Source: Nitrospirota bacterium
GTDB taxonomy: Bacteria > Nitrospirota > UBA9217
Direction of reading: 5' to 3'
NCBI GenBank assembly: GCA_963751455.1
Contig: CAVVUN010000012.1
Span: 256,001 to 320,000 of the forward strand
DNA: 64,000 nt
The notes below the pieces were generated by a model, which did no database searches, was not told the origin of the DNA, and saw nothing but the letters and a program-made list of their open reading frames with translations. The position numbers and the translations under genes are program-made. Shown here in pieces: positions 4,417 to 64,000 of the stretch (the stretch's first letter is position 1; each line of letters starts with the position of its first letter).

Positions 4417-4417
4417 G

Positions 4418-5322: not shown

Positions 5323-5354
5323 ACGAAGCCGGTGTTTCCTGGACCGGGATATTA

Positions 5355-10170: not shown

Positions 10171-10191
10171 TCAAAAGATTGTCGTTATTTT

Positions 10192-47303: not shown

Positions 47304-48405
47304 TTATGATTTGCTCATTTTACCGCCGAATATCTCCACAATTTTATTTACCAAAGCCGGCAGCGAGGGGTCGCGCGCGCCCATGATAAGAATACAGTCT
47401 TCAGGTTTTGCATCGAGTTTTAATCTGGTCAATAAGTCATCGCGGCTGGTGAGCGCTTGTGCATTGAATGCCGCGGGACCAAGGCCGTTTATGATATCTT
47501 CCGAGGAAATATTTTTTTGCGCCGTGCCTCCCGCATAATCCTAAAAACGGCATTTGAACACGGATGAACACGGTAACAGCGGATCAAAACAATGTGATAG
47601 AGCAAAAAGCCATCTCGCCTTTTGGGTGAATCCATTACTGTTCGTAACTTCCTATAAATCCGTGTTGATCAGATTTTATCCGTGTCCAACTGCTTTTTTC
47701 AGGATAATAGATCGGGAGGAGATAGAGTGAATCATTTGGCCGGAACGCGGTTCGAAAAGTTTCGATGTATTCGTCTTTCAAAAACCGTGTAGGGCCGAAG
47801 CCATGCGGCTGATATACGGCCAGGATGCGTCCGGAAAGGCCTCGGGCTGCCCGAACAACAGCCGCTATTTTTGCCGGATTATGGGCAAAGTCATCAACCA
47901 CATGCACGTTCGCTTTTGTTGCGGTGACGGAAAATCGCCGGGCCACACCCTCATAATTTTTTACCGCATGCGCAAGGGCAGACGGCTCACAAGCGAAATA
48001 CTCGCATACGCAGAGCGCAGCGCACAGGTTTTCAAGATTGTGCTCTCCGGGAAGCGGCAGATGATACTCAGTGCCGCTCCTGAATAATTTGACCAAAGTC
48101 GGGAGGAGTTGCTCCCGGTCCGGCCGCCACGAACCCGAACCGTTTCGGCCGAAGCGCACGGTTGCAGGAAGCGAAGCAAGGACCGGATCGTCGGCGTTGG
48201 AGGCCGTCCAGGAAGATTGCGAAGCCAGCGTTTTGAAGAGTTTCGCGATGTCCTCAATGCTTTTGTGGTCCTTGGAAACATTCAGGATGACGGCCGCTTG
48301 CGGACGATATTTGACCACGGTTCCATCGCTTTCGTCCGCCTCCACCACCAGGAGGTCGGACCCGCCGCTATAAGCGTTTCCGATAAGGCCCTCTTTTTCG
48401 AGCCG
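47304..48405 (-). pseudogene. murC: MurC-like (UDP-MurNAc-Ala ligase family) gene, 5'-truncated and MITE-interrupted
   Basis: GLIGNA..LVVEADESDG, DH, VARRF, DDFAHNP, YQPHG, LPIY|YAGGT..MGARDP; N-terminal half absent; frame is restored when 47540-47708 is removed. Confidence 0.85.
47540..47703. mobile_element. 164-bp MITE inside murC
   Basis: 26-bp imperfect TIRs (21/26); 5-bp TSD ATAAT at 47535-47539 and 47704-47708. Confidence 0.88.
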
Positions 48406-48428: not shown

Positions 48429-50564
48429 TCAACCGATTCCTGGAATCCGCAAGGCTCGGTAAACCCAGAGCGCTTCATGAACGAGTACGGCGCTTAACGT
48501 ATGTGAATCAGGTTTCACATCCTTTGGAACGGTGAAAGAGTACTCCATCAATTGATCCTTGCACGGACCGATTTGTTTAAAAACAATGCGATGACTTACT
48601 TTTTCAGTTAGGCGAATCGCAACAACCGGTGAGCTTTTTGTGGACCAGACAGTATCGTTACAATCATTCACTCGCAGACAAACAACTACTTTTGCCCCTG
48701 CTCGGAGTTCGGATGGCCCCTCAAGCGATAGACGATACGCATTTTCAACCCAAAATTCGATCGGTCCGCAGACCTCGCACTCTCGCTGGATAAGGAGATT
48801 GCCGAGAGACAAGAGATGAGTAGCGGTTTCCCTAACAGTATGACCTGGCAAACATTGTGCCTCTGCCAGACAGGAATGTGAATGTAAGCCGGCATCAGCG
48901 ATAGATCGCCATAAAGCACCCCGACCTTCCCCAATAAACAGCATTTCGCAAAACAGAGTAGCCGCCAGTTCGTCCCACTGCCGAAATCCGAACTGAAGCG
49001 GATTGAGAAGTCGGCCGAGCTCGGGGTGCCACAAAAGCGAACGTTGGCAGCTTCGCACTAAATTCAGTCCTGCTTGCGCTGTTTCACTTATTTCACGGCT
49101 GATCTCTGCCATTCCGGCAAGTAACTCCTGACCGCTATTCGAGCCACTCAATTCCTTAGCGTAATGACGACGAACTGCTCGCTCCACTATGTTTGCATAT
49201 CCCGTTCGATCCAAATAGTGTAGCAACATGCTTGCTAATTTCTCCAACTCGTGACCACAGTTTCTTAGTTTAATTTCTCCGGGCTCGGCACTCTCCGTTA
49301 TAATAACGGCGCCGGTCGAGCCTCCTTGAATTACCGTTTGATCTTTAAGGCCTATTGTAGCAGCTAGGGGAGTTCCGGCTAGTTCAGATGGAAGAGCGAA
49401 TAGCTTAACCTTGGTCGATTGTGAATGCCACTTAGCTTCTTTATTGCCTAAGAGTTGTATTGATGGAGCAGGTCCGCAAGCATCGCCGAAAAGGACGTAT
49501 GGTCTTCTGCCTGTTGCACTCTCCTGAAAATCGTTCAGAAGGCATGCTATCTGTCCAAGTCCGACATTGTCCATTGAAAGAGAGTGACCAAGGGTAAGAT
49601 AATATTCGCTCAGTTCTGAGTTGCACCTGGTGGCAAGAAACGCTGCGGGAAAACCTTCGGCTATTGCAATTACGCTGTTTAGATCCGATGGGTAGAGTTC
49701 TCCGCCGAGCGCAAATCCACCGCATGAATGCAGCAGCAGGTTTCGGGCACTTAAATCCCCGAAGCCAATCGAAGTACGCGTACCAGCCGGTGCGCGCTTG
49801 CATTTACGAGTACCCAAGCCACTACAACCGTTAATAGGCCGATTATCAAGTAATCTTTCCGAGCTTATGCCGGCCCCGCAGAGGACAAGATTGCCTAGCT
49901 TAGCATGCCCGAATGTGCCGTGCGCGAAGACACTTAAGACATTCCAACTAGATTCCCGAATCCAGCGTCGAGCCTCATCCTCCATCCAGAGTATTTCATT
50001 GCAGCCGCTGGAAGTCCATCGTGACATTTTTTCTCGATCGAAATCTATCTCAGCTGAGTCAGGCCAATGAGCGTATTTAGCCAAATAGATCTTGGCCAAT
50101 GAAAAACTTAGACCCTCACTGTCAATTGCAGTAATTATACTCCAGGGACGCCGAAAGTGGACTGCCAATTGTTCAACTTGTGCAAAAGGGAAGTCATCGC
50201 GTAAACCTACGAGAACTGCTGAATCCCACACCGCAGCTTCAACTGAAAGCCAATTTTGTACTTTGGCAACGGGACGCTCCAACAACTGGGCATAGAACCT
50301 GACGATGCCGCTTAGTGCATCGTTTATGAAAAAAATCGGATTTCTATCATTTGTTCTCTTTCTTGGAGCGTCTATTTCACCCTTTTCCACCTGTTCTGAA
50401 GCAATATACCATTTTAAAATAGACTCCCAACGTGCAGATCGACCATCTTTCGGTCGCAGCACCATGGGTCCTCTCGCCGTGCCCTTCTTGAGCTGCTCTT
50501 CGAACGCAGTATGTCTTTCAGTCCAAGTAACCTTGTTGCTCATAACTTTGTCTTTAGTCATCAC
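48429..50564 (-). CDS. putative clan CD (caspase/gingipain C25-like) cysteine peptidase-domain protein
   Basis: VLSVFAHG (His), LLLHSC (Cys), YVLFGD resembling gingipain Y.LLGDP; C-terminal CEVC. Confidence 0.6.
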   Translation of the reverse strand: MMTKDKVMSNKVTWTERHTAFEEQLKKGTARGPMVLRPKDGRSARWESILKWYIASEQVEKGEIDAPRKRTNDRNPIFFINDALSGIVRFYAQLLERPVAKVQNWLSVEAAVWDSAVLVGLRDDFPFAQVEQLAVHFRRPWSIITAIDSEGLSFSLAKIYLAKYAHWPDSAEIDFDREKMSRWTSSGCNEILWMEDEARRWIRESSWNVLSVFAHGTFGHAKLGNLVLCGAGISSERLLDNRPINGCSGLGTRKCKRAPAGTRTSIGFGDLSARNLLLHSCGGFALGGELYPSDLNSVIAIAEGFPAAFLATRCNSELSEYYLTLGHSLSMDNVGLGQIACLLNDFQESATGRRPYVLFGDACGPAPSIQLLGNKEAKWHSQSTKVKLFALPSELAGTPLAATIGLKDQTVIQGGSTGAVIITESAEPGEIKLRNCGHELEKLASMLLHYLDRTGYANIVERAVRRHYAKELSGSNSGQELLAGMAEISREISETAQAGLNLVRSCQRSLLWHPELGRLLNPLQFGFRQWDELAATLFCEMLFIGEGRGALWRSIADAGLHSHSCLAEAQCLPGHTVRETATHLLSLGNLLIQRECEVCGPIEFWVENAYRLSLEGPSELRAGAKVVVCLRVNDCNDTVWSTKSSPVVAIRLTEKVSHRIVFKQIGPCKDQLMEYSFTVPKDVKPDSHTLSAVLVHEALWVYRALRIPGIG

Positions 50565-51492
50565 CCATCTCTCTATTTTTTACCAGATCGTTCCTTAACT
50601 CCAAAAGGTTTTCAACTTGCTTTTGGTCTTCGCGAGATAAGATAGGGATACGGGTCAGTTTCTCCAACTCTTCCTCTCGATCAAGCAGCCCGAAGCGTAT
50701 CCGCTCGGCTATGTAATCGATCAATATCCGGGGGGCGTGACCGCCGTTCCGCAGCAAAATGTTATAGATACCATAACTGGCCATCAAACAATCAGAATCA
50801 TAGGGTCCGACACCAGGGTCCTCCCAGGGCAGTTCAGCGATTGCACGCTCTATATCCCTCTTTGTAAGAGAATATGCCGCGACTACTCGAATGAAAGTCG
50901 GATCTTTCTGATCTATACAACTCCAGTTCTTGGGAGTATCACCTCCCGTAAAGATGGCTTTGGCGCCATAGCGTTGAGCAACAGTTCTGAAAACTGGAAG
51001 CTTCCACGCAGTCTTGCACGTTTGGCCACAGACTGAACTGCCTTGAATAATCATCTCCCGGAAGGCCTTGTAGGGATAGGAATGGATAAGCAGCCAATCA
51101 ACTTTTAGAAAATCGATAATAGAATTAATATTGGCTCTTGTCTTCACGTTTTTCATGCCTTGGTCCACGGTGAACGCCAGAACTTTGAGCCCTCTCTCAA
51201 CAAGCAGCTTCAGCGCTACCGCACTATCCTTACCGCCTGAAAACGCCAAAATAGCATCGTACTCCGCAGTCTTTGCCTCTTTTAGTGCCTCCTCGAATTC
51301 GCTCATGAGCACTTGAGGATCGATAGGCCTCTCGACGAGAGCAGCACACTGCAAACAGAGAAAGCGTCCCTTCGTTTCAACGAACTTTAATTTATTGTCC
51401 ATTCCCTCCCGGTAGATACAGATTTCACACATTCGACCGCCAGGCAGTGTTGCAGAAATAGTTCCGTTCAGCATTTTTGATTTAGACTCCAT
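50554..51492 (-). CDS. PP-loop N-type ATP pyrophosphatase (N-acetyl sugar amidotransferase/QueC-like)
   Basis: AILAFSGGKDS; N-terminal CEIC/CLQC; CGQTCK; RIRFGLLDREE. Confidence 0.8.
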   Translation of the reverse strand: MESKSKMLNGTISATLPGGRMCEICIYREGMDNKLKFVETKGRFLCLQCAALVERPIDPQVLMSEFEEALKEAKTAEYDAILAFSGGKDSAVALKLLVERGLKVLAFTVDQGMKNVKTRANINSIIDFLKVDWLLIHSYPYKAFREMIIQGSSVCGQTCKTAWKLPVFRTVAQRYGAKAIFTGGDTPKNWSCIDQKDPTFIRVVAAYSLTKRDIERAIAELPWEDPGVGPYDSDCLMASYGIYNILLRNGGHAPRILIDYIAERIRFGLLDREEELEKLTRIPILSREDQKQVENLLELRNDLVKNREMGDD

Positions 51493-51520
51493 GACTTTTC
51501 AAGTTCAGAATTTGACTTCA

Positions 51521-53032
51521 TTAAATGCAGTAGGTTCTTAGTTCATCGAGAGCACGACGAGCTTCAATCCGATCATCGAAAGCGAAACGCCGGCCGCTCA
51601 CGAGCTGATAAGTTTCATGTCCCTTGCCGGCAATTAAAACCACCCCTTTTGATCCGGCCCGCATGATTCCCATCCGAATAGCAGCAGCGCGGTCAGTCTC
51701 AACTTCATACTTAAGATTGAGTTGAGACGTTGCTGATAGGTTTGCTTCACTCACTCCGGATAAAATTTCCTCTATTATTGCCCGGGGATCCTCGCACCTT
51801 GGATTATCAGATGTAATAATTACGTGATCGCTAAGATTACATGCGATTGCACCCATCAACGGTCGCTTACTGCGATCGCAGTCGCCTCCGCACCCAAAGA
51901 CGGTCACTAGTTTGCTATTTCCGGATAATGCCCGCAAGGAACCGCATACGTTTTCAAGTGCATCAGGCGTATGGGCATAATCAATAAAAACTCGCGGACC
52001 ATTGACTCCCTGCACCAGTACTCGTTCGAGCCTGCCTGGCACACCATGAAAAGTCGCTATGGCCTCCGCGGACGAATTTAGATCAACACCGAGAGCAAGT
52101 GTTGCGCTGACAGCTGCCATAATATTGTAAACGTTGTAAATGCCGGTCATAGGCGAGACGATGTGAACACTATTAAACCCTTCCGCATCAAGCTGGAACT
52201 TCAACTGCTCTAACGTCATCCCAAGTTTTGACGCCCTTATTGTGGCCCGCCTCTCAATTCCGTACGTCATGAAACGCGAGCTGACCCGCTCAACTAAATG
52301 CCGGCCCCAGAGATCATCTATGTTAATCACCGCCAAAGCTTTAGTCGGAAGCATTTGGAACAACCGTGCCTTTGCCTCGAAATAGGCATCCATGGTGCCG
52401 TGATAATTCAAGTGATCTCGAGTTAAATTTGTAAAAATACCGATTCCGAAGTGAAGGCCATCCACACGATGCTGGCAAAGTGAGTGGGAGGATACTTCAA
52501 TTGCCGCCGTGTTTTGTCCCGTAACACGCATAGCCTCCAGGCATGCATGAATCTCTATGGCTTCGGGAGTAGTGATGCCGCCGTAGAAGGTTTGATTTCC
52601 GACAACCCAATCAACGCTGCCGATCATGCCGCAGCCACGATTGACATGGTTGAGAATATGCCGAATAAGATAACCCGTTGTAGTTTTGCCATTAGTTCCG
52701 GTAATGCCGACAATATCCATCATTAAACTGGGATGGTTATAATAGGCTGAACAGAGGTGTCCAAGTGCTTGACGTGGATTGTTAGCGATAATATGGGGGA
52801 GTTTTGGAGAAAATCGTTTTTTCGCTAAAATTGCGACAGCTCCGTTCCTCACCGCTTGGGATATGGCTGCTAAATAATTTTTATTGTTTTCGTCAGTCGC
52901 AGTGAAAATGAAACCCGGTTCCACGCTACGGGAGTCCAGAGCTATACCGAGAATATCAACATTTGCCGAATTAGTGATGGTAATGTCTGGATAGGACGCG
53001 CTTAGGCGATTAATGAGCGTGTTGAAATTCAT
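51521..53032 (-). CDS. murE: MurE-family amino acid ligase (cluster-borne paralog)
   Basis: GITGTNGKTT, TTPE, EVSSH, FTNLTRDHL, DYAHTPD, GCGGD, SDNPR, IAGKGHE. Confidence 0.88.
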   Translation of the reverse strand: MNFNTLINRLSASYPDITITNSANVDILGIALDSRSVEPGFIFTATDENNKNYLAAISQAVRNGAVAILAKKRFSPKLPHIIANNPRQALGHLCSAYYNHPSLMMDIVGITGTNGKTTTGYLIRHILNHVNRGCGMIGSVDWVVGNQTFYGGITTPEAIEIHACLEAMRVTGQNTAAIEVSSHSLCQHRVDGLHFGIGIFTNLTRDHLNYHGTMDAYFEAKARLFQMLPTKALAVINIDDLWGRHLVERVSSRFMTYGIERRATIRASKLGMTLEQLKFQLDAEGFNSVHIVSPMTGIYNVYNIMAAVSATLALGVDLNSSAEAIATFHGVPGRLERVLVQGVNGPRVFIDYAHTPDALENVCGSLRALSGNSKLVTVFGCGGDCDRSKRPLMGAIACNLSDHVIITSDNPRCEDPRAIIEEILSGVSEANLSATSQLNLKYEVETDRAAAIRMGIMRAGSKGVVLIAGKGHETYQLVSGRRFAFDDRIEARRALDELRTYCI

Positions 53033-53292
53033 GGTATCTGTGTTTTTCTATGCCGCCATTATTGTCGAAAGTTTAATTCAACATTTATCTACCACGCTGC
53101 CCTTCTGTTGACGAGTGCCGCGAAGAGTCTGAGCCAGGCTGAAAGGCTGCCCCTCGCCGGCATTTCTCTCCGCAAAGCTGTAGAATCTTCAACCAACCCA
53201 AAGCACTGGTTGAGGAGCCATAGCTGAGCAAAGTTCTGCCGAGAAAACCATGCTAATGAAGCGAGGGGCCAAAGTTGTTTTTTGCCGATGGA

Positions 53293-53505
53293 CTACCAGT
53301 TCATGATACCGCCACCCCGCACGAAACCTGCACGAGCCAAATCAGCACGAATATTCGCCAGTTTGGCTTTTGCTTCTTGAACTTTCGCCTTAGCTTCATG
53401 GAACTGAGCCAAGGCCTGAAAGTCCTTGGAAACTAAATTTTTGTGCTCCGTTCGGAGGCGGAGCTCCACAATACCACTGGTACTCACTTTCTTCTTTTCT
53501 GCCAT
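53293..53505 (-). CDS. putative RiPP precursor/scaffold peptide 2 (70 aa, ends GIMNW)
   Basis: AAGGAGG RBS; paralog of 53607-53810. Confidence 0.75.
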   Translation of the reverse strand: MAEKKKVSTSGIVELRLRTEHKNLVSKDFQALAQFHEAKAKVQEAKAKLANIRADLARAGFVRGGGIMNW

Positions 53506-53606
53506 CTTCCTGTCCTCCTTTTTTAATTAAGATTCTCCAATAGACACTTCGCACCGTTTGCTGTCCAAATGTTCATTAAGCCATTAATGGCACTGGGCTT
53601 GGTGAT

Positions 53607-53810
53607 TTACCAGTTATCCGATACGTCGCCAAGCACTAAACCCGCACGAGCCAAGTCAGCACGAATATGCGCCAATTTGGCTTTTGCTTCTTGAACTTTC
53701 ACTTTAGCTTCATGGAACTGAGCCAAAGCCTGAAAGTCCTTGGAAACTAATTTTCTGTGCTCCGTACGAAGCTCCTCGATACCGCGAATACCTAATTTCT
53801 TTTCAGCCAT
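53607..53810 (-). CDS. putative RiPP precursor/scaffold peptide 1 (67 aa, ends VSDNW)
   Basis: AAGGAGG RBS; shares RTEH..LVSKDFQALAQFHEAK.KVQEAKAKLA.IRADLARAG with its paralog. Confidence 0.75.
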   Translation of the reverse strand: MAEKKLGIRGIEELRTEHRKLVSKDFQALAQFHEAKVKVQEAKAKLAHIRADLARAGLVLGDVSDNW

Positions 53811-53869
53811 TTTTTTCTCCTCCTTTCTTGAATTAAATTAAACACAAGAGATTTTGATCTCAGCAATCC

Positions 53870-55390
53870 CTATATATGATTACTAAATCGATTTGAATCG
53901 TTCAAAACAAAGTTCTTATGACCAACAGCCGCAGCTGAGGCGCCTGCCATCCTCCCAAAAAAAGCGCCAGATAACAGACCAGTTCCGGCTAAATAGTTAT
54001 GATTGAAAAGGCCTCCCACCATTTCTCCGCAAGCGAAAAGGCCGGAGATAGGTTTCTGATTTGAATCAAGCACCTGAGCCATCTCATTTATTTTTACACC
54101 TCCATAAGTAAAAGTGATACCACCAGTAACGGGATATGCAAAAAAAGGCGGATCCTCAAGCCGGCGCGCCCAATTAGATTTAGGTGGTTGAATACCCGCA
54201 GCCGTCAAACCATCCAATTGGGTCGGGTCGAACTCACCTTGGCGCTGAGCCCCGTTATATTGCTTAAGCACTTCACATGCCCTAGCTTGATTTATTGGCA
54301 ACATCTTAACGAGGGATCCCAAGGAATCAGCGAGGATTGGTTTCCCGGTCTTATAGCGTTTCTCCAGCAGCGGCACGGCATTCGCGTCAAATATCTGGTA
54401 GGCTATGCCATTGGGCTGGCTTAGGATGATTCGACCCATCTTTGCATACGTGAAAAACTGAAAGTCTTCTCCTTCGTCACAAAAGCGCTGGCCGAGGCGA
54501 TTCAGCATCACTCCAAAAGGATAGGAAAGCCGGTTGGACTTATCAGTCAATGAACGGGAGCCGAAAAATGAAGTGCCCGCGTCAATGGGTGTAGAATGAC
54601 AGTGCGTGAAATTACCGTATCGAAGCGCGTTTAAGTCAAAAGCCATGCGCAAACCATCTCCGGTATTATAGGCAGTGCCTCGAACTCTCGCTTGAGCCCA
54701 TTGCCTACCCAAATAGTGCGCACGCCAAGCAGCATTAGACTCAAACCCCCCACAGGCCAGTATAATAGCTTTAGCGGTTAATTGAGAATATCCTTTCGGG
54801 CTCCGGGCAAGAACACCCGTAACCCTCGACCGATTATCCCGGGTTAGCGATACTGCAGCTGTTTGATATAGCACCTCTATTCCTCGTTCAGCAGCAATGT
54901 TGAACCACATTCGTGATAGTCCTACGCCTCCATCGCGTACCTGAACCAAAGCTCCAGGCGACCATCCCACCTTATTTTTGTGGCAAATAGCGCTCAAGGA
55001 TACGGCCAATTCCATAGCTATGCCTTGGTTTACCAACCAGCGGACTGTGTCATAAGAGTGATTGACCAACAGCATGCTCAAATGTAAATCGATTTGACGA
55101 TGAGTAAGGCGCTGTAGATCCTCCCAAAATTGTTGAGCTGTATAAGATGTTATCTCCTCGAAAAAGCCAGGAACTTGACGTTCGGCATCAGGTAACAGTG
55201 GCCGTAGATCGTTTCTCGAATCGAAGGCGAAACGCAATAGCCCTCCGCTGAAGTAAGTATTTCCACCACGAAAATGTTCAGGTGCTTTCTCGAGAACAAT
55301 AACTCGCTTCGCGCCATTTTCGTGGGCGGATACGGCGGCAGCCATAGCGGCGTTCCCAGCGCCAACGATTATTACGTCAAAATCAGACAT
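53870..55390 (-). CDS. FAD-dependent oxidoreductase, TcuA/CobZ-like
   Basis: VGAGNAA, EKAP..RGGN, ACGGFE, NTGDG, GITFTYGGV, CGEMVGG. Confidence 0.85.
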   Translation of the reverse strand: MSDFDVIIVGAGNAAMAAAVSAHENGAKRVIVLEKAPEHFRGGNTYFSGGLLRFAFDSRNDLRPLLPDAERQVPGFFEEITSYTAQQFWEDLQRLTHRQIDLHLSMLLVNHSYDTVRWLVNQGIAMELAVSLSAICHKNKVGWSPGALVQVRDGGVGLSRMWFNIAAERGIEVLYQTAAVSLTRDNRSRVTGVLARSPKGYSQLTAKAIILACGGFESNAAWRAHYLGRQWAQARVRGTAYNTGDGLRMAFDLNALRYGNFTHCHSTPIDAGTSFFGSRSLTDKSNRLSYPFGVMLNRLGQRFCDEGEDFQFFTYAKMGRIILSQPNGIAYQIFDANAVPLLEKRYKTGKPILADSLGSLVKMLPINQARACEVLKQYNGAQRQGEFDPTQLDGLTAAGIQPPKSNWARRLEDPPFFAYPVTGGITFTYGGVKINEMAQVLDSNQKPISGLFACGEMVGGLFNHNYLAGTGLLSGAFFGRMAGASAAAVGHKNFVLNDSNRFSNHI

Positions 55391-55469
55391 AAAACCTCTG
55401 TTAAAAACATCAAAGAACTATGAATAACAGCTAGTTGTCAATCAACTTCAACGGTTGCTAAAAATAAAT

Positions 55470-57164
55470 TTAGTCCCGCATCTTTCTAGGTTGAACGGTT
55501 GTATGGCCAGAAAATAACCATATTTCGCGTTCACGGGGCAGATTGTTGACATCAACATTAGCAGGAGTGTCTATAAATTTTTTTACATTTTCCCCTAAAT
55601 GCAAGGCGATCAATGAAGCCATATCCTCTTTCGACGGAACTGGTATCAGGATTTGTGCACCGAGAAGCTTCATCATGTCCATCGTTTTCGCATTGTTAAA
55701 GGCACAGGTATGTGCATCGTCATAGAGGCAGAGTAATACATCTACCGGCATAAGTGCAGAAATCTCATCGTGAGATAATGAACGTGTCAATCCGCCAATA
55801 TAACAAAACCGGAAGCCATCGAACTCGATGACTGCTATCGGAGATTGATAGACTCCTCCCGAAATCAAACTCTCGTCCCGGTTAATTAGCTGTATTGAGC
55901 AAAAGTCATAATTTATGATGTCGACGGCTCTCTTCCTGTTTACGTTAGAAGCGCCCAAGGGTGTTTGTAACTGATGTTTTTTCGACCAAATACCATCTCT
56001 GTCAAGCACTACCACATCTTCTTGCTGTTCAATTAGTCGAGAGCTTTTTCTGCGGGGGTCCAGAATGACCAGGCCTGGCTTCGATGCCGATTGAAGTTCA
56101 ATAAACCCATCACGACATCTAATACTGTACTTGCCGGCTGATCCTGAAACATAAGGCTTACGCGCCGATGAAACTGATAGCGGGCAGTACAAATCCGCCT
56201 CATCAGATCGTAGCCCCCAACCGACTGCACATGCTCTACAGCCTCCGAGACAATTAGAAAGGTGACCGCAGCTAGAGCAGGTATCAGGCACATTGAGAGT
56301 ACGCAATGCATTCATCCGCGCGCCATAAAACACTTCAGTAAGTCGATGAGTGACGAGATTGCCTAATGGCAATTTAATATAACCGCAAGGGACAAGGTTC
56401 CCCAGGGCATCAACGTGCAAATGCTTACTGAAGCAGCCTGGCTGAGTCGAAGGTGTCGTCCCCTGCAAAAACTCAAAACAGGATGAGCCAAAAGTGATCT
56501 GTCTGTATTTTGACATCGCAATGGCGCTCTTCACGACCTCGGCAACCTGCTCCGCCGAGGGACAAAGCTCATGACTTGCACGGCCCGACGGCACTACGGG
56601 GCGGATTTTAAATATCGCAGCGCCTGCATTGTGGGCGGAATCAGCGACCTGCTTCATTTCTGCGATATTGACTCGTGTAAGCGTCATGCGTACGAGGACC
56701 TGGAATCCCATACTTGAAGCCGTCTCAATATTGGCCAGCGTACGTGCAAATGCTCCCGGTGTGTTCCGATGCCAATCATGAGTAGGTCCAAATCCGTCTA
56801 GGCTCACGTGCATCGTAAAAATGCCTGCATCGAGCATACGGTCCAATTCTTCAGAATTCAAATTATAGGCGTTCGTGAAAAGTATTGATGCGATGCCGGC
56901 GTCAATCAGATGCCTTCCAATAGCGCATACAAGATTTAATTCTAAGGTAGGTTCTCCGCCGGTGATGGCCACTTCTTTCGTATCGAGCTGATGAAGATCC
57001 TCAATAAGCTTTGACCTAAAGCGGGAGAAGTTAAAAACAGCACCTTTTTTCGGCGCCGGGCGCGCACAATGCCGGCATTTCATGTTGCACTGGTCGTTTA
57101 TGCGAATGCGGAGACTCTGGAGTCGCGCATATGGAACGGTCGGAAGCATGTTAGGTTTCAACAC
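55470..57164 (-). CDS. radical SAM/SPASM enzyme fused to a degenerate MBL-fold C-terminal domain
   Basis: CNMKCRHC, TGGEP, SLDG; SPASM CSSC..C.GGCRA..C; C-terminal IEFDGFRFCYIGGL..VDVLL..ILIP. Confidence 0.85.
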   Translation of the reverse strand: MLKPNMLPTVPYARLQSLRIRINDQCNMKCRHCARPAPKKGAVFNFSRFRSKLIEDLHQLDTKEVAITGGEPTLELNLVCAIGRHLIDAGIASILFTNAYNLNSEELDRMLDAGIFTMHVSLDGFGPTHDWHRNTPGAFARTLANIETASSMGFQVLVRMTLTRVNIAEMKQVADSAHNAGAAIFKIRPVVPSGRASHELCPSAEQVAEVVKSAIAMSKYRQITFGSSCFEFLQGTTPSTQPGCFSKHLHVDALGNLVPCGYIKLPLGNLVTHRLTEVFYGARMNALRTLNVPDTCSSCGHLSNCLGGCRACAVGWGLRSDEADLYCPLSVSSARKPYVSGSAGKYSIRCRDGFIELQSASKPGLVILDPRRKSSRLIEQQEDVVVLDRDGIWSKKHQLQTPLGASNVNRKRAVDIINYDFCSIQLINRDESLISGGVYQSPIAVIEFDGFRFCYIGGLTRSLSHDEISALMPVDVLLCLYDDAHTCAFNNAKTMDMMKLLGAQILIPVPSKEDMASLIALHLGENVKKFIDTPANVDVNNLPREREIWLFSGHTTVQPRKMRD

Positions 57165-57292
57165 TGATTGCTCCTTTTGATCTTGTCATCACTAGTTGCA
57201 ATATCTCCGCGGCTGGTCACTGTGTATTCGCGCAAAAATTTTAAGCTTTTAATTGGTCTCGCCTAAGATTCTGCAATTCGCCCGCGTCATAA

Positions 57293-58318
57293 TCAAAATT
57301 CCAGAGAGTTTGGCTTAATATTCTGACAAGATGGTACGCTTACCGTGAGGTCATTGAAAAAATTGAAACCCAGCGCCCTGCATGCCGAACAAAAATATTG
57401 ATCGTCACAATTTCCACATTTTCCTTGATATTTTCCAGGCGTTTGTTTTCGTAGAAGTGCCAAAAGTTCAGATGACCAAATTTTTTTCAAATCGTCATTA
57501 ACAAGATTTCCCAAGGCGGATGCCAAAACAGGTTTAAAATGCTCGCAAGGTCGAACTGTGCCATCAGGGGATATTGATAATTTGAACCTACCCGCAGAAC
57601 AAAGCTTCAGATGATCATTTTCCGGACTGCGACTGCAACTGCTGTATCGTAATGGTAACTTGCTAACTGTTGTCTTCGCGCGTTGCCACAAAGCGAATGC
57701 CGCCGACTCATCTTGTGCAAATATATGCTGTCCAAATTTAAACGGTACATAATATTGCATGATAACTCCGCGCAGTCGGTCTGGCAAAGCAGATATAAAC
57801 TCGGCTGGTTCAGGGCATCCTGCTAAAAGTGACCAGACAACCATCACATTAAGACCAGCATCCATTGCATGTATCATAGCCGAGCAAGTCTCATCGAAGC
57901 TGCCTGCCCGCGTTTGCTTGTCGTGGTAAACGCGGTTGCCAAATAATTCAAATATAATATTTCCAACGCCGGTTTTTCCCAATTTAAACCAAAAATCCGC
58001 TTCAGGCATTGGGCCACCTGTAATAAGGTCGCAATCGAGGTCATCTTTAGTTGACTCCTCCAGTATCTCTGGGAGCCACGGGAAAGCATTACAGCCCGGT
58101 GCGATAAATAACACATGCCGAATATTGTGCTCCGACAGAACCAGTAAAACCTTTCGTATGATTCTTTGCTGTTCTTTTGGCTCATAACCTTGGAAAAAGT
58201 AGGGGCAATGTTTGCATTCAAACGCACATTTCCAAGCGAGCTGGATATGGGCCTCAATTGCAACGCTCGGTAGTATGGATAAAAAATCTTTAATCCTCTG
58301 ATCGACTTGTTGATTCAT
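57293..58318 (-). CDS. radical SAM/SPASM protein (divergent)
   Basis: CAFECKHC; CSAG..PDG.V.PC; CGNC..CSACRA; ATGA overlap with the upstream gene. Confidence 0.85.
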   Translation of the reverse strand: MNQQVDQRIKDFLSILPSVAIEAHIQLAWKCAFECKHCPYFFQGYEPKEQQRIIRKVLLVLSEHNIRHVLFIAPGCNAFPWLPEILEESTKDDLDCDLITGGPMPEADFWFKLGKTGVGNIIFELFGNRVYHDKQTRAGSFDETCSAMIHAMDAGLNVMVVWSLLAGCPEPAEFISALPDRLRGVIMQYYVPFKFGQHIFAQDESAAFALWQRAKTTVSKLPLRYSSCSRSPENDHLKLCSAGRFKLSISPDGTVRPCEHFKPVLASALGNLVNDDLKKIWSSELLALLRKQTPGKYQGKCGNCDDQYFCSACRALGFNFFNDLTVSVPSCQNIKPNSLEF

Positions 58319-59304
58319 TTTATCAACCAGCAATAAGGGTCGGGCGCGTATAAATCTCCTGAACTAATGTAAGCCATGGCACGACATCCGCCACCGCATT
58401 GCATAAAGCTGCTGCAATTGCAGCAACGTGGATCGATTCCATCTCTAGCCCTCAGAGCATCCATAACTGGATGCCGCGACAAGATATCATCTATATGGTT
58501 AGATGCCAGTGTACCCAGCGTCAAGGGGAAAACCGGGCATGGATAAGCATGTCCTTGAGCTGTATAATGCAACATATAACCTGCTCCGCACTGAGCTCGT
58601 TCGTCGATGGATCTTTCTGCGAAAAGAGCTGCACAGTGTGGCAGCTCCAAGTGAATACCTATATGAAAAGTAGAAATCTTTTTGATATCTAAAATAAAAC
58701 GCTTTAATGATTCTCCGGACAAAATAGGACCAGACAGGCCGGCTTGTCTGCCCAGAGGCATAAGTGGGAATAGGATTAAGGTGTTGACACCCAGTTCATC
58801 TAGCATGTGAATCATTTGCTGGATATCACTTTGATTATGGCGAGAAACGGCTGTTTGAACAGCCACTCTGACGCCTTTTCTAACAAGGCGCTCGATCGCA
58901 GACCAGGCTTTAATGAACGTGCCCGGGCCTCTCACAGCCTCATGAGCCTTGGATAGCCCGTCCAACGAGACCTTAATACCATAAATATTCATAGAAATGA
59001 GTTGCTCGATTCGTTCATCTGAAAGGAGAATTCCATTGGTTGTTAAACCCCAGAACATTTGCTTACGAGTTGCATAAGTGCCGAACGACTTGACTATATT
59101 CCACTCAAGTAGCGGCTCTCCACCGGTCAAGTCGAGAATAGGTGTGCGTTCACCCATCTGGTTAAAAAGTTCTGCTACCATCAATTCTGACCAAGAGGAA
59201 GTCGAACTCGCAGAGCTGTCGACGGCGCAATGGGTACACGAAAGATTGCATCGTGCAGTTATTTGAACGCTAATGGAAGTAAGGGGCGCTGATTCGAATG
59301 CCAT
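58315..59304 (-). CDS. radical SAM/SPASM enzyme
   Basis: AGGAG RBS before MAFESA; CNLSCTHC, TGGEP, TTNG, SLDG; CGAG..PC; CCNC..CGGGCRA..DPYC. Confidence 0.9.
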   Translation of the reverse strand: MAFESAPLTSISVQITARCNLSCTHCAVDSSASSTSSWSELMVAELFNQMGERTPILDLTGGEPLLEWNIVKSFGTYATRKQMFWGLTTNGILLSDERIEQLISMNIYGIKVSLDGLSKAHEAVRGPGTFIKAWSAIERLVRKGVRVAVQTAVSRHNQSDIQQMIHMLDELGVNTLILFPLMPLGRQAGLSGPILSGESLKRFILDIKKISTFHIGIHLELPHCAALFAERSIDERAQCGAGYMLHYTAQGHAYPCPVFPLTLGTLASNHIDDILSRHPVMDALRARDGIDPRCCNCSSFMQCGGGCRAMAYISSGDLYAPDPYCWLIK

Positions 59305-59389
59305 TGTCGGAGAACTCCTGTAATGCTGCGATGAATTTGGGGGATAACCAACTATTGGGTATCCCCCATGTGGTAATGCAGCTAGCGTT

Positions 59390-59464
59390 TTAGAGACAAT
59401 GGGCAATGTTGACCATACAACCCGCAAATCGAACTTTTTTCAACTTAAGCTTAAATTTGCGCAT
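59390..59464 (-). CDS. putative 24-aa RiPP precursor MRKFKLKLKKVRFAGCMVNIAHCL (not in ORF track)
   Basis: AAAGGAGG RBS just upstream of ATG 59464; TAA at 59390-59392; followed by hairpin 59339-59367; flanked by rSAM genes. Confidence 0.7.
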   Translation of the reverse strand: MRKFKLKLKKVRFAGCMVNIAHCL

Positions 59465-59494
59465 ATAGCACCTCCTTTCTCCGTTTGAGTTCTC

Positions 59495-60319
59495 CTAAAG
59501 AGGCCCTGGGCATAATTTATCCCTGCCTGTGCGTCTTCTGCGGGCTCGGCATCCCCCGCCACAATCCTTAATAGCACACTTTAAACATTCATCGGGAACC
59601 CGAGACCAGGTGAGAAGCCTCTCATCATTCCAAATTTCGCTCAAGCTTTTGTTGTCTAAGGAGCCCAGGCAAAGGCGTGAGCGTCGACATGGACGAACTT
59701 CAGCCTGCTCCGAAACAAACAGGGCAAATCGACCAGCTGGGCATTTACTTCCGACATTTACAAAATCAGGGAAAAAACGCTGCATTAATACCAGATCTGA
59801 TATGACAGGTATCGAGCAATTGTCGGAAAATTCAGATACTGCATAAAGAAATTGTCGGTAAGTATCAACCGAAGCGTGTGGAAGCTCCTCGATGTTCACG
59901 GCTGCCACAGATCTTGCTGACAGCCATTCGATCCAAACCTCTTGATTCGCCTTAGGAGGCAAGTAACCAACAATGACAATACTAAAGCCAAAATCCAGGA
60001 GCATGGCGATTTTTTCCTTGAGACTTTTATCGGGCGAAAGACTTGTATCAACGCTGACTCGCAATGTACATGGAGCAAGCCGGCGCCAGGATGGACGAGG
60101 TTGCAAATCCTCGTATGCGAGGGTCAACACAAGTTCATAACCATGTATTACACTTAAATCCAAAGCCGTTTCAATTGGACCCTTGCATACCATGTTAATA
60201 ATGGAAATTCCTCCAGCAAGTATCATTGACAAGCGTTCGGTCCACAGCGTGTGGTCGGGCTGCAAAGGCAAATCTACCTCGGCAATCATAGGCGCTATCA
60301 GGCGTTCGCTTTCGGACAT
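59495..60319 (-). CDS. SPASM-domain protein lacking the radical SAM CxxxCxxC motif
   Basis: CPAG..VRPC..LGS..SLSEIW..CLKC..CGGGCRA..C present; no N-terminal Cys triad. Confidence 0.78.
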   Translation of the reverse strand: MSESERLIAPMIAEVDLPLQPDHTLWTERLSMILAGGISIINMVCKGPIETALDLSVIHGYELVLTLAYEDLQPRPSWRRLAPCTLRVSVDTSLSPDKSLKEKIAMLLDFGFSIVIVGYLPPKANQEVWIEWLSARSVAAVNIEELPHASVDTYRQFLYAVSEFSDNCSIPVISDLVLMQRFFPDFVNVGSKCPAGRFALFVSEQAEVRPCRRSRLCLGSLDNKSLSEIWNDERLLTWSRVPDECLKCAIKDCGGGCRARRRRTGRDKLCPGPL

Positions 60320-61269
60320 AAAGGATCGTTACCCCAAATTTCCTTTGTGGCGCTGTAGGCTGCTGCTCGGCAACCTCTGCATATCGTGCAAAAATCGCAA
60401 GTATAGCACTTGGCTTCAGATGGAACGGTGCGCAGCGATGCCATTAATTCAGAAGTTTGCCATGCGGCGGTAAATCCTACATCGAAAACATTACGATCAG
60501 AAATACGCAGTTTCGCACAGGGTAGCATAGAGCCATCACTGGAGATTACAACCGCCCATCTGCCGGCGGAACAGCCACTCCAGATATCGTTGGGAATATC
60601 TTTGATATATTTTTTTGGAGTTAATAAATTAAGCAAAGGTTCTTCACAAGATAAATTCTCATGCGATTGCATCCATCCCGAGATCGTCTTCAAGACATGA
60701 TCATACTCGACTACTCCGAGAGAAAAATCATAATCAAGCTTGCCGGGTAAGGCGCAAATTCTCTGGAAACCTGCAGGAACTCCAAGACGAACGAACAGAT
60801 TTAAGAATTTGTCTATTTTAGCGATATTTCGCGACGAAAGTGTCACGAGAAAAGTAATTGGAAGGCCTGCATCTCGCAAGCGCAAGACTTGTTCACACAC
60901 TGCTTGCGCCCTTTCATCCTCTGTTGGAAGAGCATGAAGACTGAGTTGAATAAAAGAAATTTTGTTGTGAAGACGGCTAAAGAAATTTTCAGGAATTCGG
61001 AGTCCATTTGTCAAAAGACCTGGTCGCCAGCCAAACTGATTAGCTTTCCCGACCAGTTCCTCAATATGCGGATATTGCAAACACTCGCCCCCTGTAAAAA
61101 CGATTCGCTCTACTCCCGCCTTTTTAGCCTCAGCCAGAAGTTGAGTGCCTTCAAACAGCGGCATATCTGTAATATGGCGTTCAGAGCCTAAATAACAAAA
61201 GGGGCAATCCAAGTCACATCGTGTAGTTACCTCCAGCTCGAGTAAACTTGGCGCTTGCAAATTCAGCAT
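60298..61269 (-). CDS. radical SAM/SPASM enzyme (PqqE/MftC-like architecture)
   Basis: CDLDCPFC, FTGGE, LTNG; CSAG..PC; CYTC..C..CRGCRA..DPLC. Confidence 0.9.
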   Translation of the reverse strand: MLNLQAPSLLELEVTTRCDLDCPFCYLGSERHITDMPLFEGTQLLAEAKKAGVERIVFTGGECLQYPHIEELVGKANQFGWRPGLLTNGLRIPENFFSRLHNKISFIQLSLHALPTEDERAQAVCEQVLRLRDAGLPITFLVTLSSRNIAKIDKFLNLFVRLGVPAGFQRICALPGKLDYDFSLGVVEYDHVLKTISGWMQSHENLSCEEPLLNLLTPKKYIKDIPNDIWSGCSAGRWAVVISSDGSMLPCAKLRISDRNVFDVGFTAAWQTSELMASLRTVPSEAKCYTCDFCTICRGCRAAAYSATKEIWGNDPLCPKANA

Positions 61270-61270
61270 T

Positions 61271-61594
61271 TTACAATCCCTTTTCGATCCGGATTAGTTT
61301 GTTATCATTCATTTCCTGGAGAAAACCAGATAACTCTTCTATTAACTCCTTTCTTTCTGGAATTTCAACGTTACCGATTTTTTCTAAATTATAAGTAATA
61401 TCGTCGCAAATTTTGCCGAACGTTGTCGGTTTATCCAATAGACGCCATACCATTGCTTCGAACTCGCCAAATTCGTAGAAGCCGTGAAAATCCGGTCGTT
61501 CTCCTTTGTATCTTGGGAAAACCAGTATCCTCCCATCCTCAGTATCTCGCCACTGATGGCTCTCTAGTCTATACACTAACGTTGAGTCATCCAT
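61271..61594 (-). CDS. PqqD-like RiPP recognition element (RRE)
   Basis: 107 aa; beta strands then helices (AMVWRLLD..TFGKIC..FLQEM...LI); AGGAGG RBS; coupled to the rSAM gene. Confidence 0.78.
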   Translation of the reverse strand: MDDSTLVYRLESHQWRDTEDGRILVFPRYKGERPDFHGFYEFGEFEAMVWRLLDKPTTFGKICDDITYNLEKIGNVEIPERKELIEELSGFLQEMNDNKLIRIEKGL

Positions 61595-61671
61595 TTTACC
61601 TCCTGCTGAACCTAGTGAATTAGCCCAAAGTTCGGAATCACCTCGATAATAAAGTTTAAAAAGGGAGACTA

Positions 61672-63999
61672 TTACTTACTAAATATAATATTCGAAACAT
61701 CGATAACATCTTCCTTCAACGCAGTGTTAGATAGCAGCTCCCATGATGTGCTCCTTATGGCTGCCTTCAAATCACTCGCAATTGGCTCTATAATGTTTAT
61801 TATATTTGGGTTGGCATGGATGACTATACTCTCAATGCTTCGCCAACTTGGGAGCTGATGAGCCGCCTTCGCCTTATTGACCGCAGAATACACGGCCTGA
61901 GCTACATCAAAACTACTGTTCTTGTCAGGCGGAGAAATCCCCTTGAAATCCGTGTCGTTGGGCCAAGGTGCAATTGAAATACTCTTAATTCCAGTTTCCC
62001 CTGCAAATTCCCAAGACCAAACTTCCTCGCAGATATAGGGAATAAACGGTGCAAACATCTTGATTAATGTTTTAAGACCGAGACGCTGAGCGGCTATAGA
62101 CGACCCTTGATCTTCTGATTTAATACCATCTCCGCCCCATGTTCTCTTTTTGCTTAACTCAAGATAACTATCTGTGAAAGAATGCCAGAAGAAACTTTCA
62201 AGGGTGGAAAGGGCACTGCAGAAATTATATTCGTTTAATTGTTCAGTTACCGTTCGTACAGCTTTTCTGAGATGATCAATGAATGCCCGGTCTAATTCAC
62301 AAGATATGCTGTTTCCAGGTCCCTTTTGTGAAAGCACGAATTTTGAGGCATTATATATTTTTACAACAAGTCGGTTGCCTATTTTTACGATATTCTCATC
62401 ATATGCAGTATCAACTCCAAGTCGCGCATTCCCTGCCCAATAACGGAGGGCATCGGAGGAATACTTTTCAAGAAGATCGGTCGGCACAATAACATTACCT
62501 TTACTCTTGGACATTTTTTTTCTGTCTGGATCAAGAACCCATCCTGAAATGTTAATATTTTTCCAAGGTATTATATTTTCATGCAGCAGAGATTTCACTA
62601 TTGTGTAAAAAGCCCACGTTCTTATAATTTCATGACTTTGTGGCCGCAAATCCATAGGAAATAACTTACTGTGCCGATCTTCGTCTACTAACCATCGAGA
62701 TGCGATTTGAGGAGTCAATGAACTCGTGAACCAGGTATCAAAAACATCGGCTTCTGCAACAAACCCATTTGCTATTCCTCTCTGCCCTTCAGAATAGCCA
62801 GAGGGACAGGTTACTGCCGGGTCAACTGGAAGTTGATCTTCAGCGGCAATTATTGGCTTTGCGTAGTCTGGAATTCCATTATTATCGATAGGATACCATA
62901 CCGGGAAAGGGACGCCGAAATATCTTTGACGGCTGATGCACCAGTCCATATTTAAATTTTGGGTCCAATCCCTATATCTATTAAGCATAAAACTCGGATA
63001 CCAGTTGATTTCCTCCCCCTTTTCCAAAAGTTGTGCTTTCTTATCAAGTAGACGTACGAACCATTGACGTGTTGTTATGTATTCAAGAGGATGATCCCCT
63101 TTCTCGTAGTACCTGACAAAGTGTTTTAATGATCTCTTCGCGATTAAGGGGGGGGCATTTCCGACTGCAGCGCCATTTGGCCGTCTTAACATTTCAGCAA
63201 TTATTTCTCGAGCTTTCCGCACTGGCTTGCCGGCAAGTTCTGAATAAAAAGTATTTGCTAAACTCGGATTTTGACTATGCCAACCCTCATGGCCAAAGCT
63301 GATGTTTGCGAATCTCCCATCTCCTGAAATAATCTGCCTTAAAGGCAGATTTTCTTCACGCCACCATTGAACATCGTTTTGATCTCCGAATGTACAGACC
63401 ATAAGGATGCCGGTGCCTTTTTCAGGATTCACCATTTTACTAGGAAAGCATCGAACTTCTGAAAAAAATAAGGGAGTAATGGCTTTTTCCCCGACTAGGT
63501 GCTTATACCTTGGGTCGTCCGGATGAAATGTAACTCCAACGCAGGCCGGTAGAAGCTCGGGGCGGGTAGTCGATATGGTGAAACCAGCATCTGATTCGGC
63601 TAGACCAAAACGAATATCGTGAAAAACGCCTTCAACTTCTCGATCTTCAACTTCTGCTTGAGCAATTGCAGTTTGAAAGTCAATATCCCACATGGTGGGC
63701 CCTTCCGAACTATACAGGTGGCCCTTTCTCAGTAGGTCCAAAAAACTTACTTGCGCAATAGTTCTACAAAGCTTATCAATGGTTGAGTATTCCTGATGCC
63801 AATCCACAGACAATCCGATTCTTTGCCACAAACTTTTGAATACTTCTTCATCTTCTTTTGTCAGTTTAACGCAAAGATCTAAAAAATTAGATCGTGATAT
63901 AATCTGCGGTTTTTTCTTCCTATCTTCCGAGTCCGCCTGTTTTATGTTCAAATGCTCTTTATACGGCTCATTAGGATCGCATCGGACATGAAAATAATT
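61672..63999 (-). CDS. valS: valyl-tRNA synthetase, type 2 (actinobacterial/archaeal-like); 5' end outside window
   Basis: NYFHVRCDP, TTRPELL, GTGILM.CTFGD, DWCISRQR, DTWFTS, RPQSHEIIRTW, KMSKS; frame open to the window edge. Confidence 0.92.
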   Translation of the reverse strand, partial: NYFHVRCDPNEPYKEHLNIKQADSEDRKKKPQIISRSNFLDLCVKLTKEDEEVFKSLWQRIGLSVDWHQEYSTIDKLCRTIAQVSFLDLLRKGHLYSSEGPTMWDIDFQTAIAQAEVEDREVEGVFHDIRFGLAESDAGFTISTTRPELLPACVGVTFHPDDPRYKHLVGEKAITPLFFSEVRCFPSKMVNPEKGTGILMVCTFGDQNDVQWWREENLPLRQIISGDGRFANISFGHEGWHSQNPSLANTFYSELAGKPVRKAREIIAEMLRRPNGAAVGNAPPLIAKRSLKHFVRYYEKGDHPLEYITTRQWFVRLLDKKAQLLEKGEEINWYPSFMLNRYRDWTQNLNMDWCISRQRYFGVPFPVWYPIDNNGIPDYAKPIIAAEDQLPVDPAVTCPSGYSEGQRGIANGFVAEADVFDTWFTSSLTPQIASRWLVDEDRHSKLFPMDLRPQSHEIIRTWAFYTIVKSLLHENIIPWKNINISGWVLDPDRKKMSKSKGNVIVPTDLLEKYSSDALRYWAGNARLGVDTAYDENIVKIGNRLVVKIYNASKFVLSQKGPGNSISCELDRAFIDHLRKAVRTVTEQLNEYNFCSALSTLESFFWHSFTDSYLELSKKRTWGGDGIKSEDQGSSIAAQRLGLKTLIKMFAPFIPYICEEVWSWEFAGETGIKSISIAPWPNDTDFKGISPPDKNSSFDVAQAVYSAVNKAKAAHQLPSWRSIESIVIHANPNIINIIEPIASDLKAAIRSTSWELLSNTALKEDVIDVSNIIFSK

Positions 64000-64000
64000 T

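Follow-up and report, generated by a model that had tools for sequence, protein, structure and literature searches.

The window analysed here, 64,000 nucleotides of a Nitrospirota genome (assembly GCA_963751455.1, contig CAVVUN010000012.1, positions 256,001 to 320,000; C12 below), ends in a 16.5 kb genomic island (C12:304405-320951) carrying a candidate cluster for a peptide made by the ribosome and modified after translation (RiPP). An open reading frame (ORF) check of the window gives 14 co-oriented genes, all on the minus strand and with intact reading frames (14/14). The first, valS, encodes a second valyl-tRNA synthetase (ValRS) and starts at window-equivalent position 64317 (C12:320317), downstream of a promoter with a 12/12 match to TTGACA-18-TATAAT, i.e., a perfect sigma-70 match; the last encodes a 711-aa cysteine enzyme of the gingipain fold (clan CD), hereafter the peptidase. 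Between them lie genes for a RiPP recognition element (RRE), five SPASM proteins, mostly radical SAM (rSAM) proteins and named here by length, a 24-aa peptide (the 24-mer), two peptides ending in Asn-Trp (NW), a flavoenzyme, a MurE-like ligase, and a PP-loop ATPase (Table 1). Intergenic gaps range from -22 to +260 nt, with overlaps in the pairs rSAM323/SPASM274, rSAM329/rSAM346, and PP-loop/peptidase. A first-pass annotation of the window, made from the sequence alone, had listed these genes with the same orientation, order, and overlaps, and all of this was confirmed; it had also proposed retrieving upstream genes beyond position 64000, where the island holds only the rest of valS. A check of the genome contig upstream of valS found no further cluster gene, and such genes were rejected as candidates; a fusion gene flanks the island edge there.

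The island has a GC content of 45.7%, against 53.7% in its flanks, and its genes have a GC content at third codon positions (GC3) of 0.39-0.51, against a genome median of 0.63. On one side it borders an intact L,D-transpeptidase-MurC fusion gene, and on the other a diverged duplicate of that gene's 3' end, which starts 25 bp past the peptidase stop codon; this duplicate marks the insertion site. The peptidase was found in 0/60 relatives, and 300 genomes of the phylum hold no full-length match, with weak partial matches in 7/300. Likewise, a ValRS of the island's type exceeds its model cut-off in 1/201 phylum genomes, namely the host itself, and the searches turned up no further copy of the cluster as a whole. 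Because of these boundaries, the low GC and GC3, the flanking duplication, and the absence from phylum genomes, we regard the island as complete, foreign (horizontally acquired), and sporadic. At the boundary, C12:320952-322871 encodes an L,D-transpeptidase-like domain fused to a MurC-like ligase (domain names from motifs), and a 170-bp inverted-repeat element at window 47535-47707 has dozens of near-identical copies, on most contigs.

The structural model of the peptidase aligns with gingipain K (Kgp) at a Z score of 17.3 (root-mean-square deviation 3.3-3.4, 255 aligned residues), compared with ~9 for unrelated rows, and with a Csx29-containing entry at Z 10.8; the fold and the conserved His/Cys pair bear out the first-pass assignment to clan CD. 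The family lies outside Pfam: the window protein has no Pfam or NCBIfam match, PF01364 (C25) matches 0/60 family members at E 0.05, and a PDB sequence search returned only coiled-coil noise. One cluster among its Atlas neighbours is automatically named C25. A search of 1.84 billion representatives gave 237 relatives at E 0.001. In an alignment of the window protein with 59 of 149 relatives listed (n = 60), the catalytic His215 is present in 60/60 sequences and Cys281 in 59/60, and an Arg follows the catalytic Cys by 32-34 residues in 41/59 (+32 in the window protein), PorU having one at 32, a likeness of sequence spacing only. The family tree has long branches and groups the window protein with P0004 and P0007 only. 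Searched with the family profile, viral contigs gave no relative. Samples of Acidobacteriota (250), Pirellulaceae (140), Pseudoalteromonas (110), and Vulcanimicrobiaceae (130) added no new genome, and 146 genomes of the order to which locus L019 belongs gave only that of L020, already known. The 711-aa enzyme is likely a PorU-like transpeptidase.

Genome and metagenome scans yielded 16 loci with peptidase relatives, in which Trp-ended peptides were picked by eye. Ten of the 16 (L013, L014, L015, L017-L021, L025, and L028) have a Trp-ended small ORF either inside the cluster or at its head, and these ten span seven named phyla and two metagenome contigs; of the six others, four lie on contigs <5.5 kb, L023 is cut, and L022 is a true negative. 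Leaders are unrelated among the peptides (GG-type, NHLP/LigA-like, and lanthipeptide-like, some assigned by weak matches), and the terminal Trp is the only residue common to all, the residue before it being S, A, C, E, or N. Under a fixed rule, 7/55 small ORFs bearing a ribosome-binding site (RBS) end in Trp, compared with 41/2014 in the host genome (Fisher p 2e-4) and 1/66 in control loci; removing one ribosomal protein and one spurious ORF leaves 5/55 (p 0.007), and kinship among the nucleoside loci described below inflates the enrichment. At L013, leader removal is already accounted for by a C39 exporter encoded in the locus. This recurring pair of a peptidase and a Trp-ended peptide is a new finding and the most transferable discovery of this work, and it points beyond leader removal. 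The first-pass annotation had made recurrence of the neighbourhood a check on the cluster: the whole gene set was not found elsewhere, while the pair, which had gone unnoticed, does recur.

A later test set of 300 Pseudonocardiaceae genomes contributed 10 new genomes with 11 loci, of which seven (L116 included) contain a nonribosomal peptide synthetase (NRPS) adenylation domain, two contain only an ATP-grasp ligase, and one is cut. Five of seven matches on Streptomyces plasmids were fetched, and 5/5 encode an NRPS adenylation domain but nothing credible as a Trp peptide. Peptide-free loci mostly encode NRPS adenylation domains or ATP-grasp ligases, and for the most part the enzyme family has either a Trp peptide or an NRPS domain beside it; an adenylation domain without a Trp peptide would be expected if thioesters stand in as the acyl donor. 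Three of the Streptomyces plasmid loci (L029, L031, and L032) hold a conserved deazapurine cluster with queD, queE, folE, and queC, an NRPS, a HAD protein, the peptidase relative, and ~15 further enzymes. L118 (7851-13526) is a lower-GC insert in an actinomycete that encodes a 23-aa peptide ending in SW, a DUF1152 protein, the peptidase relative, a HisG-like phosphoribosyltransferase, a nucleotidyltransferase, and an MFS-like transporter.

Eight loci encode a NikO-type enolpyruvyl transferase, with a Trp peptide in 8/8 and an ATP-grasp ligase in 2/8; NikO is the best PDB match for these transferases (214 bits vs. 143 for MurA). These orphan clusters (L014, L017/L126, L018, L019, L020, L021, L025, and L116), from five named phyla and one metagenome contig, resemble those for nikkomycin and malayamycin, and they also carry rSAM enzymes, a pyridoxal phosphate-dependent aminotransferase, 2-oxoglutarate oxygenases, a phosphatase, a kinase, and sometimes TruD. 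NikS and PolG are the ATP-grasp ligases of the nikkomycin and polyoxin clusters. Compared with the nikkomycin, polyoxin, and malayamycin clusters, the sister loci add the peptidase and the Trp peptide and often lack a ligase of the NikS/PolG type. For instance, L014 and L018 have complete flanks and a Trp peptide, and no ATP-grasp or adenylation domain was detected in either. The nucleoside loci are the most tractable systems for the Trp-peptide module.

Table 1. Features of the island and its boundary, in window positions.
Feature	Position	Strand	Basis and remarks
Second, alternative-type ValRS, 881 aa	61672..64000 (start C12:320317)	-	NF000540 alt_ValS, 1062 bits vs. cut-off 900
Stand-alone RRE (PqqD-like), 107 aa	61271..61594	-	PF05402 E 0.003; NF033536 E 0.002; AGGAGG; fold
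rSAM323: radical SAM/SPASM enzyme, 323 aa	60298..61269	-	Profiles, motifs; CX3CX2C and GGE present
SPASM274: SPASM-only protein, 274 aa	59495..60319	-	Profiles, motifs; CX3CX2C and GGE absent; overlaps rSAM323 gene
24-aa peptide (24-mer)	59390..59464	-	AGGAGG at 59476, inside a 30-nt gap
rSAM329: radical SAM/SPASM enzyme, 329 aa	58315..59304	-	Profiles, motifs; CX3CX2C and GGE present; ATG 59304
rSAM346: degenerate radical SAM/SPASM protein, 346 aa	57293..58333	-	CX3CX2C present, GGE gone; Radical_SAM score under cut-off
Radical SAM/SPASM protein with metallo-beta-lactamase-like tail	55470..57164	-	CX3CX2C and GGE present; tail without HxHxDH
TcuA-family flavin adenine dinucleotide (FAD) oxidoreductase, 506 aa	53870..55390	-	PRK08274, 516 bits vs. 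cut-off 369
Trp-ended peptide 1, 67 aa, C-terminus DNW	53607..53810	-	AGGAGG; paralogue of peptide 2
Trp-ended peptide 2, 70 aa, C-terminus MNW	53293..53505	-	AGGAGG
MurE-like ligase	51521..53032	-	Over PRK00139.1-4 and TIGR01085 cut-offs; ATP loop, DNPR, KGHE retained
PP-loop (N-type) ATP pyrophosphatase	50554..51492	-	SGGKDS motif; nearest WbuX
Gingipain-fold (clan CD) cysteine enzyme, 711 aa	48429..50564	-	AlphaFold2 model, pLDDT 90; His215/Cys281; helical insert, zinc ribbon, immunoglobulin-like tail
Diverged 3' duplicate of the L,D-transpeptidase-MurC fusion gene	47304..48404	-	97.7% over 701 bp and 89% over 236 bp to C12:320952-321883; 170-bp multicopy element inside

In the island itself, AGGAGG occurs six times on the coding strand, and four of the six lie directly before the RRE gene, the 24-mer, and both NW peptides; because of this placement, the three peptides can be taken as more than chance ORFs. 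The 24-mer, with a Lys-rich N-terminus and a C-terminus containing Cys, Val, and His, has no homologue among the plasmid sequences searched and is likely the substrate of the RRE/rSAM enzymes. The two NW peptides are 74% identical, with six synonymous and four non-synonymous codon changes over 43 aligned codons; a search of 5.8 billion clusters gave back only these two, and no search made returned a homologue outside the window. The RRE model has three strands and three helices at low confidence (pLDDT 49.5), and its best five Foldseek matches are all RREs (E 0.08-0.27), in agreement, together with weak PqqD matches, with the first-pass call. The locus thus has the marks of a RiPP cluster, i.e., small RBS-bearing ORFs inside an operon and an RRE, recognized by weak hidden Markov model (HMM) matches and a low-confidence fold, and the earlier RiPP-type reading, built on the RRE and on peptides with strong RBSs, stands in outline.

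All five SPASM proteins predicted at first are present, and CX3CX2C is found in 4/5 and CX3CX2C together with GGE in 3/5, so at most four, and probably three, would be catalytic, SPASM274 having lost the first motif and rSAM346 the second. The predicted fusion of an rSAM enzyme to a metallo-beta-lactamase domain likewise exists, with a tail that has no HxHxDH metal motif. SPASM274 is likely a partner subunit, and because each degenerate gene overlaps an intact one, the arrangement suggests two heterodimers, each of a degenerate and an intact SPASM protein. The start of rSAM329 is most likely ATG 59304, which leaves the 24-mer intergenic, and a 370-aa start for this gene was rejected in its favour. 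The closest plasmid relatives of rSAM329 (32%) are located in rSAM-PqqD-rSAM-rSAM operons. In Microbulbifer and Indioceanicola, L131 (11385-16060) and L132 (8586-13205) are a conserved plasmid operon of NTF2-like, rSAM, PqqD, rSAM, rSAM, and tautomerase genes, in which no common precursor was identified. The best HMM rows for the SPASM proteins are AhbD, NirJ2, and TIGR04053, ahead of mycofactocin and PqqE models, and no maturase model for PQQ, mycofactocin, SCIFF, GeoRSP, or SynChlorMet exceeds its family cut-off (best 138 bits vs. 500). Cyclopropyl synthases were rejected as an identity, since GYW, the motif given for TvgB/TigE (PMC10878394), occurs in 0/5 SPASM proteins.

The TcuA-like oxidoreductase, present in a single copy in the genome, the MurE (PRK00139.1-4/TIGR01085), and valS all exceed their model cut-offs, as their first-pass names would predict; plasmid matches of MurE and TcuA were uninformative. 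The PP-loop protein scores far under the WbuX cut-off (54.7 vs. 203). Of the 152 positions conserved in 30 housekeeping MurE proteins from the host phylum, the island MurE retains 116 and deviates at 36, compared with 0-20 deviations when each housekeeping MurE is left out in turn. Its changes include R385C, at the Arg of GGDRD (Arg in 30/30), and loss of the N-terminal G..DG motif, with E48, N52, and Y53 in place of residues found in 29-30/30, and we take both sites to be substrate-binding. Foreign origin accounts for part of the divergence; the PDB MurE match, from another phylum, has both the Arg and the G..DG motif. With a housekeeping murE elsewhere in the genome (C15:90546), the island MurE is likely repurposed, as far as its sequence indicates.

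The island ValRS is canonical and full-length, with intact HIGH, editing, and KMSKS motifs, and the housekeeping valS (C3:167566-170067) is split into three reading frames in the assembly. Another class I synthetase gene (C2:141180-143579) is likewise multi-frame, and the breaks in both are probably assembly errors. Pearlins are defined by a LanB-like peptide aminoacyl-tRNA ligase (PEARL), and profile scans of the island proteins annotated no Val-tRNA consumer of the Fem, PEARL, or cyclodipeptide synthase (CDPS) type. Since the enzyme is canonical and a second copy, with no such consumer annotated, it likely confers self-resistance and does not take part in ligation. The first-pass annotation had counted three ATP-dependent activating enzymes as signs of ligation; ValRS fits resistance instead, and the PP-loop protein and the altered MurE are kept as proposed ligases. 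For tiarins, a duplicated aminoacyl-tRNA synthetase (aaRS) in the cluster was taken as the mark of the target (bioRxiv 2025.12.02.691738), and by this rule ValRS would be the target here. Among relatives of the peptidase, L124 counts for the rule, having extra HisRS copies and an S66 peptidase; this locus (25-11822) has two HisRS-like genes, an Asp/Asn/Lys-type class II synthetase-like gene, an ATP-grasp, a methyltransferase, the S66 peptidase, and a peptidase relative without the catalytic His, and it is a candidate HisRS inhibitor pathway. Genes for the alternative ValRS also lie in an operon with aminotransferases and an amidohydrolase (L043) and in one with rSAM, amidinotransferase-like, and TauD genes (L046), both candidate valine-analogue pathways.

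We tentatively favour, at somewhat less than even odds, a two-module RiPP-type cluster for a peptide-carried (Trojan-horse) inhibitor, in which the gingipain-fold enzyme would swap Trp for an amine warhead. Its observed basis consists of the island and its boundaries, the fold with its His/Cys pair, and the recurring link between the enzyme and Trp peptides. In the proposed pathway, the RRE would bring the 24-mer to two pairs of active and degenerate rSAM/SPASM proteins and to the metallo-beta-lactamase fusion; these enzymes would cross-link or remodel its C-terminal residues, and the FAD enzyme would oxidise an intermediate. The warhead is assigned to this module because of gene order. The PP-loop ATPase and the altered MurE would make further amide bonds, and the clan CD enzyme would then form a thioester on the Asn before Trp, releasing Trp, to be resolved by the warhead amine, as might occur with PorU and anionic lipopolysaccharide (A-LPS); PorU is described as a C25 enzyme that removes a C-terminal signal, with a proposed transfer of the chain to an amine (PMC4560394). 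The extra ValRS would protect the producer, and the released warhead would probably mimic valine or valyl-adenylate. Acyl transfer is the simplest common role for the family because Trp peptides and NRPS domains alternate, leaders vary, L013 has its own exporter, and no ligase was detected in L014 and L018. A bolder version, which we consider possible but rather unlikely, makes the pair a portable 'Trp-tag' module in which a gingipain-fold transpeptidase, with Trp as a universal leaving group, passes ribosomal peptides or NRPS thioesters onto nucleoside and other amine warheads across many phyla; the island, joining two ribosomal pathways, one for a radical-SAM-built warhead and one for a carrier peptide, would then make the first ValRS-directed Trojan-horse antibiotic.

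Several points weigh against the preferred reading, whose chemistry, warhead, and target are all predicted from genes alone. The island has no nucleoside genes and no transporter, and its full gene set was not found a second time. L022 has full flanks and no Trp peptide, most by-eye picks were post hoc, three divergent peptidase relatives lack the catalytic His, and only 2/11 loci of the test set have a Trp peptide (L116 and L118, both ending in SW), or 2/4 of those >100 bits. Of the six transferase loci without an ATP-grasp ligase, four are cut by contig ends, and the ligases present in L017 and L116, one fused to the peptidase, suit ligation to the Trp carboxylate. As for the target, genes for the alternative ValRS also occur on plasmids outside obvious clusters (the setting is cluster-like in 2/5 regions viewed), and the island copy may be a replacement for the multi-frame host valS. 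An IleRS gene beside L123 was rejected as a resistance copy, being the sole IleRS of its genome, and the support for the duplicated-aaRS rule within the peptidase family is mixed.

The ATP-grasp ligases fused to or beside the peptidase would fit a scaffold-and-release pathway like that of pearlins or fosfazinomycin, in which the rSAM enzymes modify the NW peptides at Trp or Asn-Trp, the PP-loop protein and MurE add to the carboxylate, and the peptidase hydrolyses off the product. The invariant terminal Trp and the position of the two ATP-dependent ligase genes between the NW peptides and the peptidase agree with it, and fosfazinomycin offers a precedent, where an asparagine-synthetase-like enzyme and an RRE conjugate the C-terminus of a 22-aa peptide (PMC13622209). 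We give this pathway a smaller, though real, chance: L014 and L018 are complete without a detected ligase or adenylation domain, sister clusters share no common set of Trp-modifying enzymes, and the variable residue before Trp suits, without proving, Trp as a leaving group. An ordinary RiPP pathway, with SPASM enzymes cross-linking all three peptides, the clan CD enzyme cutting leaders, and ValRS and MurE as passengers (for tRNA supply or resistance), seems improbable. In its favour, an RRE with SPASM enzymes and peptides is the usual equipment of such pathways, PqqD-rSAM operons house the best plasmid relatives of rSAM329, and MurE exceeds equivalog cut-offs. It leaves unexplained the terminal Trp shared by peptides with unrelated leaders, L013's C39 exporter, the R385C change in MurE, and the enzyme's presence in nucleoside and NRPS clusters in which no RRE was noted.

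A pathway to a redox cofactor or a tetrapyrrole-type product (PQQ-, mycofactocin-, or AhbC/D-like), which would start from the 24-mer and have the FAD enzyme for its client, would accord with the AhbD, NirJ2, and TIGR04053 rows and with the active and degenerate SPASM pairs known from GeoRSP and NirJ1/J2, to which the island pairs can be likened. Because all scores are far under cut-off, the pathway gives no account of ValRS, MurE, or the Trp peptides, and the island is strain-sporadic, we hold this to be the least probable of the alternatives. Hardly more probable is a mosaic or assembly artefact, i.e., unrelated genes on one island or a piece of contaminant contig. The contamination estimate of 5.37%, the lack of a second full copy, and the frameshifted synthetase genes elsewhere in the assembly speak for it; the single promoter and strand, overlapping genes, uniformly low GC3, and intact frames speak against it, as does a flanking repeat that has diverged (97.7% and 89%) and contains a host multicopy element, unlike a mis-join.

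The cluster is real and complete and cannot be assigned to a described class, in line with the first-pass statement that no such class was known: none matched in the literature searched, and maturase models stay under cut-off. The island enzyme shares with PorU and the gingipains of C25 the catalytic-domain fold and the His-Gly and Cys motifs, but is only 10-11% identical to Kgp, has extra helical, zinc-ribbon, and immunoglobulin-like parts, and lacks a Pfam C25 match and a secretion context; its partners are small peptides in biosynthetic clusters, and transfer is predicted only. Late-stage assembly of fosfazinomycin on FzmZ resembles the island in using a short peptide and an RRE, in amide chemistry at the C-terminus that requires ATP, in its Trojan-horse logic, and in a link to valine. 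Ligation there is the work of an asparagine-synthetase-like enzyme, with no gene for a dedicated peptidase (PMC13622209); the island lacks phosphonate genes, its PP-loop protein is short and WbuX-like, and it encodes five SPASM proteins as well as a clan CD enzyme dedicated to the pathway. Tiarins and trifolitoxin likewise have peptides that depend on an RRE, and the duplicated aaRS of the cluster is interpreted there as immunity (bioRxiv 2025.12.02.691738). NW peptides minus Trp would end in Asn, as microcin C precursors do (PMC8323819); the 14 island proteins include neither a TfxB/TfxC pair (flavin mononucleotide dehydrogenases) nor a ThiF/MccB adenylase. ValRS is not mentioned in the article text on tiarins or microcin C, the supplements being outside its scope, and the tiarin cluster tables could bear on this. 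Pearlins likewise combine a long helical peptide, a last residue that matters, and a dedicated protease (TglG/TmoG; PMC10885120), but the island has no LanB-like PEARL, its Trp is gene-encoded, and its protease is clan CD, not M50. GeoRSP, SynChlorMet, PQQ, mycofactocin, and TvgB/TigE systems also join a stand-alone RRE to SPASM enzymes, GeoRSP with a SPASM-only partner, and differ in family models far under cut-off and in the GYW motif, absent here. The accessible part of a 2023 review of RiPP proteases has no mention of gingipain, C25, clan CD, or caspase (PMC10885120), and neither the cluster nor a gingipain-fold enzyme that takes part in making RiPPs or nucleosides is described in the full-text literature searched, which left most subscription papers and supplements outside its scope.

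If the enzyme conjugates peptides to small molecules without ATP, this would be a new RiPP logic, would account for orphan nikkomycin-like clusters without a ligase, and would offer a one-residue-tag ligase for protein labelling; if it merely releases the Trp end, the peptides would still form a new class. The ValRS copy points to a testable antibacterial target. Elsewhere in the genome, ARAGORN calls, as unverified predictions, a second tRNA-SeC at C13:3947-4041 and a tRNA with anticodon ACT at C2:525275-525348.

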